From Muribaculaceae bacterium (GTDB taxonomy: Bacteria; Bacteroidota; Bacteroidia; Bacteroidales; Muribaculaceae), in NCBI GenBank assembly GCA_029062005.1, contig JAIDQZ010000041.1, positions 946 through 64,945 on the forward strand: a stretch of DNA of 64,000 nucleotides, read 5' to 3'. This document shows, in pieces, positions 40,819-45,792 of the stretch; within the stretch, counting starts at the first letter, position 1, and each line of letters starts with the position of its first letter. The notes beneath the pieces are model-generated. The model was not told the origin of the DNA. It saw only the letters and a program-made list of their open reading frames with translations, and made no database searches. The translations under genes were made by a program, and so were the position numbers.

Positions 40819-40982
40819 AATTCGATCTCTGTGTGATGAAAATTTCAAGCAAAATTACAAAAAAATCATATACAACGGTGACATTTTTTTCTTTTTTTAT
40901 GAAGCGGGTCTTAATGCGGATTTGCCGGATAAGGGATGAATGACGATGTCGCCTTGTAATTTTGCCGAAAAAACAAATGCAA

Positions 40983-41336
40983 ATGGATATTACAGAACTT
41001 GTCACACTTGCAGGAGCCGTAGGAGGCATGCAAGGTATCGTGGAACTTGCCAGATGGTTGCGTTCCCGAAAAATGGAACAGAGAAAAGAGGATGCGGATA
41101 TTACTGCAGTGGAAAATCAAAACAGCAGGATGCAGATAGACTGGCTTGAAAAACGCCTTGCCGAGCGCGATGCAAAGATAGATGCCATCTATGCGGAATT
41201 TCGCAAGGAGCAGACTCTCCGTATAGGCGAGATACATCAGCGTCACGAAGTGGAACTGAGGCTTACAGAAGCCGAAGCACGTAAATGCCTCGTACGCGGC
41301 TGCCCGTCGCGGATCCCGCCTGAAGTCAATTCATGA
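40983..41336 (+). CDS. Holin-like protein of Bacteroidales lysis cassettes
   Basis: One N-terminal hydrophobic segment, coiled coil, C-terminal KCLVRGCPSRIPP; lies upstream of a spanin-like and an endolysin gene. Function inferred from context. Confidence 0.55.
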   Translation: MDITELVTLAGAVGGMQGIVELARWLRSRKMEQRKEDADITAVENQNSRMQIDWLEKRLAERDAKIDAIYAEFRKEQTLRIGEIHQRHEVELRLTEAEARKCLVRGCPSRIPPEVNS

Positions 41337-41427
41337 TCCATGTAATGTCCGATTTTTTATGTGATGCGACCTGAACCTTCTAACCATCAGCTTGAGCTTG
41401 CGAAAGTTGAGTAAACAAGTATTTATT

Positions 41428-41937
41428 ATGTATTCTTTAGTTTTTAAGTTTATTACCATGCTCTCCTGTGCCGCTTTGATCTCCTGCAGATCCTCAAAAC
41501 CGGCAAACATATTTTATGAAGTGAGCGATACTCTGGCAGCTTCTATCGATACGTCTTTCAGTCTGTGTAAGGATTCCTCAGTCAAGACCGAAGATAAAAT
41601 GACTCATGTCTGCGGCGTGGTGGAATTTATAGATTCAGGAGGATCTATATCAGTGGTTGCCGATGGTTCGTTGGTCATGTCAGGAGTCACATACTTGCAT
41701 TCCTCCAGACTTGACGCTTCTTCCGGAAAGGAAGATAACAGCAGTTCTTCACTTCAGATTCAAAGAAAAGACAGTCTATCGTCCTCCAAGAAAGAAGCGG
41801 TACATTCCGAATTCCAGGTCAAGGACTCCAATTCCCGAAGATTTCTTATGAAATGCATTTATATATCTGCTATCGTTATTCTCGTGTTGACACTAATCCT
41901 TGTAAAGATCCGCCCCCTTCGGAAGCGACAGGAGTAA
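41428..41937 (+). CDS. Lipoprotein with C-terminal TM helix (u-spanin-like)
   Basis: Lipobox LISC-RSS; C-terminal CIYISAIVILVLTLILV followed by KIRPLRKR. Confidence 0.6.
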   Translation: MYSLVFKFITMLSCAALISCRSSKPANIFYEVSDTLAASIDTSFSLCKDSSVKTEDKMTHVCGVVEFIDSGGSISVVADGSLVMSGVTYLHSSRLDASSGKEDNSSSSLQIQRKDSLSSSKKEAVHSEFQVKDSNSRRFLMKCIYISAIVILVLTLILVKIRPLRKRQE

Positions 41938-41950
41938 CGGAAACAAAAAT

Positions 41951-42048
41951 CTCAATCCTCAATCCTCAATTCTCAATTCTCAATCCTCAATCCTCAATCC
42001 TCAATTCTCAATTCTCAATCCTCAATCCTCAATTCTCAATTCTCAATT
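41951..42048. repeat. Heptamer array (CTCAATY) x14
   Basis: Counted 14 units, then degenerate AATTCTA copies up to the lysin start. Confidence 0.95.
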
Positions 42049-42084
42049 ATTCTAAATTCTAAATTAAAAATTCTAAATTAAAAA

Positions 42085-42648
42085 GTGGCACATCTCGAAA
42101 AATTCATCCCGTTTCTGATCTTCTGGGAAACCGGCATCAAAGACACGACGCTCGGCAATAAGCATCTGTTTGGCAAAGCTAAAGCAAAAGGCATAGCCAA
42201 TGATCCATATGACATGGGAGGGGCAACTATGGCAGGTGTGACTATAGGCACTTACCGCACATATTGTATCCGTAAAAATCGCCCTGTCCCATCTGTAAGA
42301 TCTTTGTCAAGACTGTCATATGAGGAATGGCTTGATATCCTCAAGACAATGTTCTGGGATCGTTGGCAGGCAGACAGGATACTGGATCAGAAAGTGGCGG
42401 AGATGCTTGTGGACTGGGTATGGACCAGCGGCAGCTACGGGATCACCATTCCGCAACGGCTCATAGGAGTAAAAGCAGACGGCATTGTGGGTCCGAAAAC
42501 CCTCGATGCCGTCAACAGATCTGATCCCGATGAATTATTCCGGCTTATAAAACAGGAGAGGATCGCCTACATAGACCGCATCTGCACCTCCCGTCCCGCC
42601 AACCTCCGCTTCCGCTCCGGCTGGCTTCGCCGCCTCCACGCCCTTTGA
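42085..42648 (+). CDS. GH108 N-acetylmuramidase with C-terminal peptidoglycan-binding domain (endolysin-like)
   Basis: WE...NDPYDMGGATMAGVT, VKADGIVGPKTL, NLRFRSGWLRR. Confidence 0.88.
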   Translation: MAHLEKFIPFLIFWETGIKDTTLGNKHLFGKAKAKGIANDPYDMGGATMAGVTIGTYRTYCIRKNRPVPSVRSLSRLSYEEWLDILKTMFWDRWQADRILDQKVAEMLVDWVWTSGSYGITIPQRLIGVKADGIVGPKTLDAVNRSDPDELFRLIKQERIAYIDRICTSRPANLRFRSGWLRRLHAL

Positions 42649-42713
42649 AAGATAATTTATTTAAGTTGAGCTTATGAGATGGGGAATTCCGAATTCGAAA
42701 AAAGAGTATTTTT

Positions 42714-42745
42714 TTTGCATAAATAGATAAATATGTCTATCTTTG
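42714..42745 (+). promoter_or_regulatory. Bacteroidetes housekeeping promoter
   Basis: TTTG (42714-42717), 20-nt spacer, TATCTTTG (42738-42745); matches the TTTG-N19-21-TAnnTTTG consensus. Confidence 0.75.
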
Positions 42746-42747
42746 CA

Positions 42748-42852
42748 ATGGAAGTTGTTTAAGCTTATTTCCGATTGGCTCCCTATTAAGCCAAAGCAGG
42801 TCTGCACGAAAATATGACGAAATCTTAATAAAATAGGTCGAAACAACTTCAT
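42748..42852 (+). ncRNA. Candidate structured RNA or leader starting at the promoter
   Basis: GAAGTTGTTT/AAACAACTTC 10-bp closing stem with inner stems (see findings). Confidence 0.45.
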
Positions 42853-42995
42853 ATGGTATTCATTATATAGACCTTGAAGGATGCGAGCTGCGAGCTGACG
42901 ACCGCCTTCATTTCAATGGTAACGGGTGTCGTGAGGCAGCCAATCGCTTCTTCCAATGCCTACAAGATCTGGATCTCCTTCCCGTTGAAAAGTAG
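42852..42995 (+). pseudogene. 3' fragment of an SGNH/GDSL-like hydrolase gene
   Basis: YGIHYIDLEGCELRADDRLHFNGNGCREAANRFFQCL...*: a DxxH block-V-like motif with no start codon. Confidence 0.4.
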
Positions 42996-43135
42996 GTGTA
43001 AAAAACTCGCTCCAATGCGTAATATGTAAAGATGTATAAAAGAAGAAATATAAGGTGATTAATGTAGGTTGGGAGATCAGAAAAGGAGTATTCTAATAAT
43101 AATGTAACTGTTCTCCGGTAAAAGACAAGAAAGAT

Positions 43136-43666
43136 ATGAAAGATTTTGCGGCAATAGATTTCGAGACAGCCAACGGCAGCCGTTCTTCGGTATGCAGTGT
43201 CGGTATCGTCATCGTGCGTGACGGGGAAATAGCAGACAGATTCTATAGCCTTATACGTCCTACTCCCAACTATTACAGCCCTTTCACCACCCGTATTCAC
43301 GGGCTAACGCGTCGCGACACCGATACGGCTCCGAAATTCCCAGATGTATGGTCTCAGGTCCGGGACCGGATAGCAGGTCTTCCTCTTGTGGCCCATAACC
43401 GTCCGTTTGATGAAAGTTGTCTCAAGGCGGTTTTTGCTGAGTATGGGATGGATTATCCCGGCTATGAATTCCACTGCACCCTCGCAGCCTCAAGACGTAC
43501 GCTCAAGCTGCCATGTCATCAGCTACATGTAGTGGCGGCAGCCTGCGGGTATGCTCTCGACCACCACCATCACGCTCTGGCAGATGCAGAGGCATGCAGT
43601 TTTGTGTGTATTGATATACAGAGGAGATTTGGTTGGGAAGTGTTTGAAAATCAAAATCATAAATAA
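43136..43666 (+). CDS. DEDDh 3'-5' exonuclease (DnaQ-like); C-terminus supplied by the inserted element
   Basis: AIDFETAN, AHNRPFD, HHALADAEAC; the native tail is displaced to 44403-44444. Confidence 0.92.
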   Translation: MKDFAAIDFETANGSRSSVCSVGIVIVRDGEIADRFYSLIRPTPNYYSPFTTRIHGLTRRDTDTAPKFPDVWSQVRDRIAGLPLVAHNRPFDESCLKAVFAEYGMDYPGYEFHCTLAASRRTLKLPCHQLHVVAAACGYALDHHHHALADAEACSFVCIDIQRRFGWEVFENQNHK

Positions 43667-43734
43667 GGTTTTATTAGTTTTCAATAGAGAATAACAGGAT
43701 AATTTGGAACTGTTATTTAACTTAATTTAACAAT

Positions 43735-43764
43735 AAAAGAGGTATGAAAAATCATACCTCTTTT
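43735..43764. terminator. Bidirectional terminator-like palindrome
   Basis: AAAAGAGGTATGA-AAAA-TCATACCTCTTTT, 13-bp perfect stem. Confidence 0.75.
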
Positions 43765-43786
43765 TCTTATATTTTTTTGAAAAATA

Positions 43787-43818
43787 TTTGTGTAATTCAA
43801 AAATTTTCATTAACTTTG
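43787..43818 (+). promoter_or_regulatory. Bacteroidetes promoter of the peptide/RHH module
   Basis: TTTG (43787-90), 20-nt spacer, TAACTTTG (43811-18). Confidence 0.75.
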
Positions 43819-43895
43819 TAATGTCAAACAAAGGGAGTTTGACAAGGTTAAGTTTCTTCACCCGAAGTAAGAAACAAAATGAAAAGCCAATGATT

Positions 43896-43964
43896 ATGAA
43901 AGCGACCCTCAAAATTGTTTTCAAAATCTGGAAGTTTAAAATAGAACTAACATATAAGTTCTAA
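43896..43964 (+). CDS. 22-aa cationic amphipathic peptide MKATLKIVFKIWKFKIELTYKF (alternative start 43890)
   Basis: Translated by hand; promoter and A-rich initiation region upstream, hairpin directly after the stop. Below the ORF-track cutoff. Confidence 0.6.
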   Translation: MKATLKIVFKIWKFKIELTYKF

Positions 43965-43967
43965 CTT

Positions 43968-43998
43968 CCAAGGTAGGGGCAAGACCCCTACCACTTGG
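43968..43998 (+). terminator. Hairpin plus T-rich tract between the peptide and RHH genes
   Basis: CCAAG-GTAGGGG-CAAGA-CCCCTAC-CA-CTTGG followed by CTTTTCATTTTTT. Confidence 0.65.
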
Positions 43999-44042
43999 CT
44001 TTTCATTTTTTCAAACACAAAGTTAATAAAAAAAAATCAATT

Positions 44043-44249
44043 ATGGAAATCAGTCTTAAAATTGAGAAGGTTGAAAACCGAGGAGGAGCGAGAAAAGGCG
44101 CAGGACGAAAGAAAACAGAAAACAGTCGCAACATTTCAGTTGCTTGCAGTCTTTCCCCAAAGGCATATGAAAACCTACAGAAACTTGTAGAGAAGGAGGG
44201 AAGCAATAAGAATGATGTTATAAATAAGATTCTTGAGAATCTTTCCTAA
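44043..44249 (+). CDS. Small DNA-binding protein (RGGxRxGAGRK motif plus ribbon-helix-helix-like region)
   Basis: NRGGARKGAGRKK, then SVACSLSPKAYENLQKLVEKEGSNKNDVINKIL (strand-helix-helix pattern). Confidence 0.7.
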   Translation: MEISLKIEKVENRGGARKGAGRKKTENSRNISVACSLSPKAYENLQKLVEKEGSNKNDVINKILENLS

Positions 44250-44251
44250 TC

Positions 44252-44288
44252 AATAAATGAGAGTGCGTTATTTGCGCTCTCATTTATT
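44252..44288. terminator. Bidirectional terminator
   Basis: AATAAATGAGAG...CTCTCATTTATT stem. Confidence 0.75.
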
Positions 44289-44402
44289 TTATACAATAAG
44301 TCAATCATTGGAGTTTAAACTGTTCTCTTACCTTCTCAATATTTGAAAGAATAAGTTCCCTGTTGTGTTTCTTATATATACACAAGACTGTGTGCGTCTG
44401 TT

Positions 44403-44444
44403 GACGCCGAGGCCTGCGCGGCAATAGCTCTTAAAATTCTCTGA
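44403..44444 (+). pseudogene. Displaced native 3' end of the exonuclease gene (DAEACAAIALKIL*)
   Basis: GAC GCC GAG GCC TGC GCG GCA ATA GCT CTT AAA ATT CTC TGA joins in frame after HALA at 43582. Confidence 0.85.
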
Positions 44445-44694
44445 AGTGAAGAAAGTCGCTTGGAAAAGTTGATATCGGGAGGTGATAATCTATATGAAAA
44501 CTTCGTTATATAATAAAGTTACATAATAGAATAGGCGAGATATACTATACGGTATATACAAAGTCTTATGTTTTGGCAAAGCATAAACTATACAAAAAGG
44601 GTCGATGCCTTCAAATGGAACCGACCCAATCTTATTTCTATTCAATTTTTTTTATCTGACAGTAAAAAGATTAATAGATAAATTGATTTCTAAA

Positions 44695-45792
44695 TCAATT
44701 TAGCCATTTTTTGTTTTTGGTATCGTATATTTTTGCTCCAGCAGTAAACGATCCTTTGGCATTGCTTACAACGATTCCAGCTTTTACATATCCACTATTG
44801 TCTATTTTGGTAGAATAGTTAAACGATGCGGAAGTTGCTGTGGCATTCAATTTTGTATCTTGCCATTCTTCAGCATAAGGATTCCAAACTCGTAATACAA
44901 TCTCTGTTGCTTTGCCATATCCATTGCCAGTGGAATTTTTCCAATTTAGAGTCATAGTGCTTCCGCTGACTGTACAATTACCGTAAGTATATGCTGGAGC
45001 AAATGCTTCATCATTGCTTGTTGCTGTGTATTTTGCATAATCGCTAAAGGGGCTCTCTCCTGCGCTATTAACTGCTTTCACTTTATAATAGGCAGTTGCT
45101 CCATTTGTTGGCGCATTTGAATCTGAATAACCATATTGCGCGTAAGATGTTTCACCAATTTTTGAATAGCTGCCGTTTGCGGAAGAACTTTTGTAAATAT
45201 AATATGTTGTTGCATTGTTGACTGAGTTCCAACGCACTCTAACATCAGGAATATAATTATTCCCTTCATTTGATACCGTTACGCCAGTAGGTGCTTGAGG
45301 TTTTTGTTGATTATTGTCTCCGCCTTGGTTGTCGTTGCCACTACCGCCAGGATTATCATTGCCACCACCTGAATTGCTGCCAATGTATTGAACGTAAATT
45401 GGTGATGATTTAGAACTTATCGAGTAAGTATTTCCTCTAAGGTTGTTACAGGCATAAATATAATAATAATTATCTCCTTCCAGGGGTTTAGTGTCTATTA
45501 CATTTGTATTATAGATTTTCCCGGAATCACCAATATACCCTAATGATACAGTAGTCCCATTTTTAGAATTTGACCGAGAAATTGTATAGAACTCTGCAAC
45601 ATCTACTGGATTCCAAGATAGCCTTACTCCATTGGTAACAACTGTCCCGGATACACCGGTCGGTGCTGTTAAGGAACTGGTGATGGGTGGGTTGTAATCC
45701 GGCTCGTCATCATCGTCTCCTCCGCAGGAAACGAAAGTAACGCTAAATGTCGCGACGAGCATCACTTTCAGATACTTTAGTAATTTTCCCAT
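44695..45792 (-). CDS. Surface lipoprotein with fibronectin type III repeats
   Basis: Lipobox FVSC-GGDDDDE (acidic export signal); APTGV...W..V..A..Y.IY.S FN3 units; AT-rich. Confidence 0.85.
   Translation of the reverse strand: MGKLLKYLKVMLVATFSVTFVSCGGDDDDEPDYNPPITSSLTAPTGVSGTVVTNGVRLSWNPVDVAEFYTISRSNSKNGTTVSLGYIGDSGKIYNTNVIDTKPLEGDNYYYIYACNNLRGNTYSISSKSSPIYVQYIGSNSGGGNDNPGGSGNDNQGGDNNQQKPQAPTGVTVSNEGNNYIPDVRVRWNSVNNATTYYIYKSSSANGSYSKIGETSYAQYGYSDSNAPTNGATAYYKVKAVNSAGESPFSDYAKYTATSNDEAFAPAYTYGNCTVSGSTMTLNWKNSTGNGYGKATEIVLRVWNPYAEEWQDTKLNATATSASFNYSTKIDNSGYVKAGIVVSNAKGSFTAGAKIYDTKNKKWLN

Follow-up and report, generated by a model that had tools for sequence, protein, structure and literature searches.

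Type I toxin–antitoxin systems have been described from Proteobacteria, Firmicutes and Tenericutes only (PMC8309996, PMC12390103). A ribosome-binding site hidden by cis elements is a recognised trait of their toxin mRNAs (PMC8309996). The membrane toxins of this type known so far are all helical (PMC8309996; PMC12390103), and since RalR and SymE are cytosolic type I toxins, a transmembrane helix is not universal among them (PMC8309996). Here we analyse a locus within a 64,000-nucleotide stretch of DNA from a Muribaculaceae bacterium of the phylum Bacteroidota (assembly GCA_029062005.1, contig JAIDQZ010000041.1, positions 946 to 64,945; the whole stretch is called the window), where an initial annotation had proposed a 22-residue peptide made from a type I toxin-like transcript. 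By sequence comparison, this locus is one copy of a ~480-bp cassette carried by prophages and prophage remnants of mouse-gut Muribaculaceae. The cassette contains a small open reading frame (sORF) for the peptide, a strongly folded RNA domain, two convergent predicted promoters and the gene of a ribbon–helix–helix (RHH) DNA-binding protein. We tentatively read it, with a probability of about 0.4, as a type I-like module of toxin and antisense RNA, autoregulated by the RHH protein, in which the toxicity and the transcripts are predicted.

The cassette resembles described type I loci in several respects. Its ORF is very small, as in ibs/sib (18–19 amino acids for Ibs, 20–22 for the cassette), and its predicted antisense RNA would cross the ORF from a convergent promoter, again as in ibs/sib. 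As in hok/sok, the mRNA would be structured, with long-range pairing that hides the start in the manner of hok fold-back inhibition. The location in prophages or mobile elements and the patchy distribution are also those of type I systems. The differences are that the peptide is cationic and β-amphipathic with no transmembrane helix, that the mRNA would also carry the gene of the RHH regulator, and that the cassette occurs in Bacteroidota. It shows no similarity to the described systems in sequence or in Rfam, and for the cassette both toxicity and antisense RNA are predictions.

The peptide encoded in the window, MKATLKIVFKIWKFKIELTYKF, contains six Lys and one Glu, has a charge of +5 and ends in Y-K-F. 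Hydrophobic residues occupy positions 3, 5, 7, 9 and 11 and then 14, 16, 18, 20 and 22, with a switch of register at W12–K13. The initial annotation had listed the length, the Lys and Glu counts, the hydrophobic positions and the switch, and all of them are present in the sequence; homologues, which it had proposed to look for together with conservation at the codon level, were also found, and the frame proved to be conserved. The reading frame is kept at 20–22 codons in ~20 of 23 diverged lineages, and the 22-codon members of the family align without gaps. An extra in-frame ATG at 43890 is restricted to the window, the homologues starting at the position of 43896. Among the eight closest lineages, the variable columns at codon positions 1, 2 and 3 number 12, 8 and 17 of 22, so that the third position dominates, and pN/pS is 0.27 in the sORF frame compared with 0.93–0.95 in the two other sense frames. 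This ranking of the frames is unchanged in the wider family, despite saturation. Over 19 lineages there were no stop codons in the sORF frame, compared with 58 and 19 in the other two. In the L039 lineage (loci are designated L033, L039 and so on), a +1 insertion and a −1 deletion lie ten bases apart and change VFK to SFQ, with the frame and the 22-codon length retained. Diverged, GC-richer members replace Lys by Arg and exchange I, V, L and F among each other, yet retain the alternation (for example MKTKLTISFKVWRVRITLEIKF, MKLRISFKIWIVRIAFEIAI and MIRIKFELKIWKLKVITINIII). Judged by these comparisons, the peptide gene is real and conserved, a 20–22-codon ORF under coding selection and within the size of the small (<60 amino acids) type I toxins; its translation is a prediction.

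A few copies depart from this pattern. In the Muribaculum lineage a stop at codon 20 leaves 19 amino acids, and the −7 promoter box is weaker. L073 is a degenerate copy, whose match spans about two-thirds of our covariance model, with a disrupted sORF and no RHH ORF. In L052–54, codon 12 of the sORF is changed from TGG to TAG, the −7 box of the sense promoter carries a one-base insertion and the RHH gene contains a TAG, while in their sister L060 the sORF and the −7 box are intact and the end of the contig cuts off the RHH gene. The TAG at RHH codon 52 of L052, L053 and L054, which are NCBI metagenome contigs, aligns with a Gln of the homologues (EQ-stop-GSNKN against EQQGSNKN), and the in-frame TAGs may come either from decay of the whole cassette or from descent from a phage with TAG recoded to Gln. 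Re-reading the L052 contig with TAG as Gln gave no convincing rescue of other genes.

The alternation of hydrophobic and polar residues extends throughout the family. The hydrophobic moment at 170–180° is 0.54–0.78 for the whole peptide and mostly 0.5–1.4 for each half, and is conserved, while the moment at 100° is low in most members. Only 18 of 20000 composition-preserving shuffles reached the observed strand-wise moment. Net charge varies from +3 to +6, and in each member the longest stretch without a charge has 3–8 residues. As no uncharged run exceeds 8 residues and the periodicity is that of 170–180°, the peptide is not a classical transmembrane helix. Across the aligned family β-amphipathic alternation is a conserved property. 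The initial annotation had gone further and proposed a β hairpin; the alternation on which this was based is conserved and exceeds chance, while the hairpin fold is hypothetical.

The RNA that contains the sORF is predicted to be highly structured. The minimum free energy of a 193-nt RNA was −71.3 kcal/mol, compared with −34.3 ± 4.0 kcal/mol for shuffled sequences (z = −9.3), and none of 200 shuffles was as stable. The fold places two hairpins (HP1 and HP2) ahead of a multibranch domain, in which a closing stem encloses three further hairpins (P3, P4 and P5; Table 1). Compensatory changes were found at all six pairs of HP2, with 93% of cells paired, and double changes at 10 of the 12 pairs of the closing stem (91% of cells paired) and at six of the seven pairs of P5. 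HP1 lies outside the covariance model, but its covariation can be seen by eye (GTCAAAC/GTTTGAC in some sequences and GCGGTT/AACCGC in others). When 17 sequences were aligned under guidance of the model, standard pairs made up 88.7% of cells, compared with 38–55% when the partners were slid by 1–3 columns, and both sides had changed in 35 of 49 pairs, although fitting the alignment to the model somewhat inflates these pairing counts and so weakens the case. The covariation score was 0.50, against at most 0.12 in controls, and none of 500 shuffles reached any of the measures. An unfitted MAFFT/RNAalifold run already gave 15 compensated pairs among eight sequences. An Rfam scan of positions 42500–45500 at E ≤ 10 returned matches at chance level only (best E ≥ 1.4, far below gathering scores). 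The sequence of the HP2 loop, CACCC(R)AAG, has been kept above a covarying stem, and the HP1 loop is purine-rich (AAGAGA/AAAGGGAG); both loops may be recognition or kissing-loop sites.

The five-helix fold of the first ~190 nt covers the start codon of the peptide and the A-rich region upstream. We expressed the strength of this block as an opening cost, the energy needed to make positions −18 to +10 around a start codon single-stranded. Over 16 lineages, the median opening cost at the sORF AUG was 13.9 kcal/mol in the full mRNA and 10.5 kcal/mol in an RNA that ends just past the ORF, while the start region of the RHH gene on the same predicted transcript required 3.9 kcal/mol. In Bacteroidota, translation generally starts at open, A-rich start regions and not by Shine–Dalgarno pairing. 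Since the sORF start is costly to open and the RHH start cheap, the sORF looks deliberately locked and the RHH gene open. A covariation-supported fold and a sequestered start (13.9 against 3.9 kcal/mol) are what is expected of a type I toxin mRNA.

Promoters recognised by Bacteroides sigma-A have a −33/−7 consensus. A predicted promoter of this kind, P(+), precedes the leader hairpins, and a TAnnTTTG box is located 71–84 nt ahead of the sORF ATG in most lineages. A sigma-70 scan of the region gave weak sigma-70-like sites only. An inverted repeat flanks the −33 element, and the same repeat, with arms of 8–12 nt and a spacer of 10–17 nt, ranks first among the repeats of at least 12 of the 17 lineages. 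Its arms co-vary between lineages (TTTGG/CCAAA, CTTGA/TCAAG), and in 9 lineages it was matched by at most 3 of 200 shuffles. This dyad is likely to be the binding site of a dimeric repressor, and we infer that the RHH protein is the one that binds it. A second predicted promoter, P(−), has the same −7 box on the opposite strand, lies between the two ORFs, and would read back across the sORF domain, away from the RHH gene. Of 19 lineages, 18 have the minus-strand TAnnTTTG box and the nineteenth has it with a single mismatch, while the flanking sequence varies; in the 17 lineages with a scorable distance (L043 is excluded) it lies 46–70 nt beyond the sORF stop. P(−) resembles P(+); over 45 nt, the region of P(−) in L049 shares 82% identity with P(+) of the window. 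No conserved ORF was found on the antisense strand. Of the antisense RNA typical of type I systems the cassette has a predicted convergent promoter, in 18 of 19 lineages, the RNA itself being a prediction. An inverton, in which inverted promoter copies flank a segment that can flip, was considered and ruled out, as the orientation from sORF to RHH gene is the same in every lineage.

Most of what the initial annotation said of the transcript is borne out by these results. The promoter that it proposed is present, although of the Bacteroides type and not a sigma-70 consensus. The two 5′ hairpins and the 3′ hairpin (P5) that it listed are in the minimum-free-energy fold; its description of the structure had missed the closing stem, P3 and P4, and the conservation of the whole arrangement elsewhere. 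With a conserved predicted antisense promoter and an apparent lock on the start site, the type I toxin-like architecture appears stronger than had been claimed.

The RHH protein (68 amino acids) gave weak but coherent matches to RHH families (PF01402, PF16777 and the Arc-like and CopG-like repressor families of PHROG), the E-values being individually non-significant for a domain of ~35 residues. Its AlphaFold2 model has a mean pLDDT of 73, with the helices at 39–52 and 56–67 at ~90, and the best matches of the model in the PDB are CopG (34% identity, TM-score 0.74), ParG, the TacA antitoxins, Arc and ParD. A strand followed by two helices, together with the homology, places the protein in the RHH family, as judged from weak matches and a predicted structure. 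The first ~30 residues form a basic, disordered segment that includes an almost invariant (W/R)GG.R.G.GRK motif (residues 13–23 in the window), which is common even to proteins whose RHH domains are otherwise only ~25–40% identical. The RHH gene lies 3′ of the sORF domain in 17 of 19 intact sORF loci, and no RHH ORF was detected after the sORFs of L072 or L074. No promoter of its own was found for this gene, so that it is probably transcribed from P(+). In L050/L051, a 75-amino-acid RHH relative is followed by DUF5053, and the upstream leader is different, shorter and devoid of the sORF domain; these loci keep a minus-strand TAnnTTTG-like box (TACATTTG) just ahead of the start codon.

An RHH repressor beside a counter-transcribed RNA has precedents in copG-repB of pMV158 (CopG and antisense RNA II) and in immI of phage P22 (Arc/Mnt and sar RNA), which share with the cassette a small RHH repressor, probably autoregulating through a dyad, and an antisense RNA within one operon; CopG is also the best structural match of the cassette's RHH domain. 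However, the antisense RNAs of pMV158 and P22 target a gene downstream of the RHH gene (repB or ant), whereas that of the cassette would target the peptide ORF upstream, and the cassette has no replication or antirepressor gene. In omega–epsilon–zeta of pSM19035, a separate RHH protein likewise governs the transcription of a toxin module, but that system works with a toxin and an antitoxin of ordinary protein length and has no antisense RNA.

The sequence shared between loci is limited to the cassette, from about 43747/43770 to 44250 in the window, with homology ending at ~44250. In a large protein collection the 68-amino-acid protein has 12 relatives, and all of their contigs except L050/51 carry the same upstream RNA region and small ORF. 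A covariance model built from eight sequences was needed to find relatives at the RNA level. With it, 16 of 401 Muribaculaceae genomes, representing 11 of 35 genera, were found to carry the cassette, always in a single copy; elsewhere in the order, one of 400 genomes did. Searches of the cassette with blastn gave no match in phage and plasmid collections and generic AT-rich promoter matches only in 200 genomes of the family, and a degenerate-pattern scan for the sORF in IMG/VR viral contigs gave 0 matches. Pattern scans for the sORF in genomes and metagenomes returned a copy in a Muribaculum metagenome-assembled genome (in both scans), the intact copy of L060, and L058. The flanks of the cassette differ widely: terminase/portal operons in L039 and L047, Mom in L033, an integrase and holin/amidase in L043, a methylase in L049, and host-like genes in L052 and in the window. 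In L039 and L047/48 it lies directly upstream of DUF5053/HNH/TerS/TerL/portal genes. In L043, L052 and the window it has nothing after the RHH gene. L039 has a third copy of the promoter sequence (L039:2414–2460, 79% identical to window positions 43782–43828), which lies directly 3′ of the RHH gene and ahead of the DUF5053/HNH/terminase genes. By this resemblance, the same type of promoter and operator may drive the packaging operon of L039.

In the reading that we favour, the operator-bearing, Bacteroides-type promoter would probably produce one mRNA, in which the structured peptide domain is followed by the RHH gene, and the convergent P(−) would produce an antisense RNA whose complementarity spans all of the peptide domain but excludes the RHH gene. 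The fold of the mRNA and the antisense RNA would hold the peptide untranslated, and the RHH protein would repress the promoter by way of the dyad operator. The peptide would be the harmful effector of a toxin–antitoxin, addiction or exclusion module; rather than spanning the membrane as a helix, it would probably act at the membrane's inner face or target a protein or a nucleic acid. This type I-like reading is preferred because the cassette combines a micro-ORF that is locked and selected at the protein level, a convergent promoter dedicated to exactly the sORF domain, and an autoregulator-type RHH gene with an operator, because it forms a self-contained 480-bp unit found patchily in unrelated contexts, and because the decayed copy of L052–54 is damaged in the −7 box, the sORF and the RHH gene together.

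Several observations weigh on the other side. The short uncharged runs and the periodicity at 170–180° instead of 100° separate the peptide from type I toxins with a transmembrane helix. The sole structure prediction that includes the peptide, made by AlphaFold2 on an artificial 58-amino-acid 5′ read-through with a shallow alignment of eight sequences, returned a helix (pLDDT 65–88) and is evidence for neither fold. The 19-amino-acid version of the Muribaculum lineage could mean that the full peptide is dispensable. The cassette occurs once per genome, unlike many chromosomal type I loci, which are multicopy, and in some phages (L039, L047) it heads the packaging operon, which would be just as consistent with a regulatory role. 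Translation, the ends of the transcripts and both promoters are predicted from sequence. The probability was kept to about 0.4 since transcripts and toxicity are predictions, the peptide is atypical and the position in some phages is that of a late operon.

The conservation of the peptide at the protein level would also suit a non-toxic phage micro-protein, such as a β-strand partner of the RHH ribbon, a lysogeny modulator, or an anti-defence or host-takeover factor, with its synthesis timed by the RNA fold and the antisense RNA. The cassette would then specify a dual-function RNA of the RNAIII/hld or SgrS/SgrT kind instead of a poison and its antidote. In 17 of 19 intact loci, among them loci from sORF- or RNA-based searches that made no use of the RHH gene, the sORF is linked to the RHH gene, which is in line with this, and a peptide too polar to be a membrane-spanning toxin and the RHH relatives of L050/51 without an sORF domain are as expected of an accessory partner. 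However, nothing indicates a specific partner, the extreme lock and the dedicated antisense promoter would be a heavy brake for a harmless product, and a cassette that spreads on its own, patchily and regardless of context behaves more like a selfish module; we regard a non-toxic role as doubtful. A regulatory leader is somewhat less probable, and we consider it unlikely. Here the sORF, as an upstream ORF, and the fold would determine how strongly the RHH gene and, in some phages, the packaging operon are expressed, through translation-dependent refolding, ribosome arrest or attenuation, P(−) would tune this by transcriptional interference, and the peptide as such would have no job. The RHH gene, lacking its own promoter, must be read through the leader; L039 and L047/48 carry the cassette directly upstream of packaging genes; the GC hairpin P5 lies between the two ORFs; and a length of 20–22 codons with a conserved W12 is reminiscent of arrest peptides such as TnaC. 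TnaC and ErmCL are likewise encoded by short conserved ORFs that precede a regulated gene in its 5′ leader and are separated from it by a hairpin. Their ORFs are freely translated, though, whereas the sORF start is strongly buried in every lineage, even in the nascent RNA, which would be odd for a sensor ORF that needs translation, and selection has kept the physicochemical pattern of the whole peptide, not a short arrest motif. P5 was flagged by a terminator scan and rejected as an intrinsic terminator, as its U-run is displaced by 4–8 nt from the stem and absent in GC-richer members. Together with the variable distance from the sORF stop to P5 (where L043 has an extra hairpin), the single dominant fold and the lack of alternative antiterminator pairing, this argues against a transcription attenuator with a leader peptide. 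Furthermore, the RHH start region stays accessible irrespective of the leader, and in the window, L043 and L052 nothing lies beyond the RHH gene.

A purely non-coding structured RNA, such as a phage small RNA or a site acting at the DNA level, would make the ORF a by-product of A/U-rich self-complementarity, in which AAR (Lys) codons pair with YUU (Phe/Leu) codons. The structural conservation is very strong, inspection suggests that hairpins within the ORF could generate an alternation of Lys and hydrophobic residues because these codons are complementary, and two lineages have premature stops. This account is nonetheless very unlikely in view of the three-base periodicity of the substitutions, the frame-specific pN/pS and the 0 in-frame stops against 58 and 19, the compensated frameshift in L039, and the survival of the peptide pattern through large nucleotide change in GC-rich members that swap Lys for Arg. 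The cassette also resembles dual-function RNAs (RNAIII/δ-haemolysin of S. aureus, SgrS/SgrT, SR1/SR1P), in which a structured RNA of ~200 nt embeds a conserved ORF of 20–45 codons, but these base-pair in trans, and no trans target is evident for the cassette, which differs further by its convergent antisense promoter and linked RHH gene. The initial annotation had also suggested a secreted antimicrobial peptide and had likened the Y-x-F end to an outer-membrane β-signal, which could act as a mimic directed at the BAM machinery. The window peptide is indeed cationic and amphipathic and ends in Y-K-F. However, the C-terminal residue of the family may be F, I, L, V or W, so that Y-x-F is not conserved, one lineage makes 19 amino acids only, the peptide has no signal peptide or leader, and no transporter, protease or immunity gene lies beside the cassette in the contexts examined. 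Neither suggestion is supported by this comparison, and a secreted or BAM-directed peptide is hardly credible.

If the type I-like reading is right, the cassette may be the first type I-like family of Bacteroidota and its peptide a new kind of toxin, a cationic, β-amphipathic peptide of ~20 residues controlled at three levels (the fold of its mRNA, an antisense RNA in cis and autorepression by the RHH protein) within a 480-bp mobile cassette; this wider claim is possible but less than probable. Such a family would extend both the taxonomic and the structural range of type I systems. The cassette, which unites an operator, a lock-fold, a 22-codon ORF and two convergent promoters of nearly identical sequence, would offer a compact and well-delimited system in which to study RNA-based control in a phylum whose translation starts without Shine–Dalgarno pairing, and a true toxin and antitoxin could serve as a counter-selection or containment part for the genetics of gut Bacteroidales. 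If the peptide is a regulator, it would still represent a new conserved micro-protein and structured RNA family missed by gene callers and by Rfam.

Table 1. Predicted features of the cassette and its insertion in the window
Feature	Position	Strand	Description
Insertion, ~820 bp, with cassette	43583–44402		In 3′ end of DnaQ-like exonuclease gene
Dyad operator, putative	43774–43803		Arms TTTTTGAA (43774–81) and TTCAAAAA (43796–803), either side of −33 element
Sense promoter P(+)	43787–43818	+	−33 TTTG 43787–90; −7 TAACTTTG 43811–18; predicted start ~43823
5′ hairpins HP1 / HP2	43822–44 / 43852–75	+	Minimum-free-energy fold
Closing stem	43876–90 with 43995–44009	+	Perfect 15 bp; closes multibranch domain 43876–44009 around ORF
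Hairpin P3	43892–928	+	ORF sequence; buries AUG
sORF	43896–43964	+	ATG 43896, TAA 43962–64; 22 codons + stop; encodes MKATLKIVFKIWKFKIELTYKF
Hairpin P4	43929–70	+	Buries 3′ half of ORF and stop codon
Hairpin P5	43972–92	+	GC-rich; between sORF and RHH gene
Antisense promoter P(−)	44018–44025	−	−7 box TAACTTTG; predicted start ~44011; reads back across sORF domain, away from RHH gene
RHH (CopG/Arc-like) DNA-binding protein	44043–44249	+	68 aa; basic disordered N-terminus RGGARKGAGRKK
Terminator hairpin and T-run	44252–44288	+	Ends predicted cassette transcript

In the window, the cassette is part of a larger insertion (Table 1), which gives the exonuclease gene a new tail, ending in DAEACSFVCIDIQRRFGWEVFENQNHK and a stop codon; the old tail, DAEACAAIALKIL with its stop codon, remains at 44403–44444. 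When the flanks of the insertion are joined, they align unbroken over the junction in genomes of the same genus (for example G406, query 32–353, 76% identity), indicating an empty site in these relatives. No recombinase is encoded within the ~820 bp. The mini-element to which the initial annotation had assigned the peptide is supported, in that the cassette is small, mobile and found in prophages, and its copy in the window lies within an insertion that relatives lack. A Pfam search of the ORFs between 38 and 48 kb found no other phage structural genes. Upstream of the exonuclease gene, at 40962–42648, two small ORFs precede a GH108 muramidase with a PG_binding_3 domain, and this region looks, from its gene content, like a lysis cassette.

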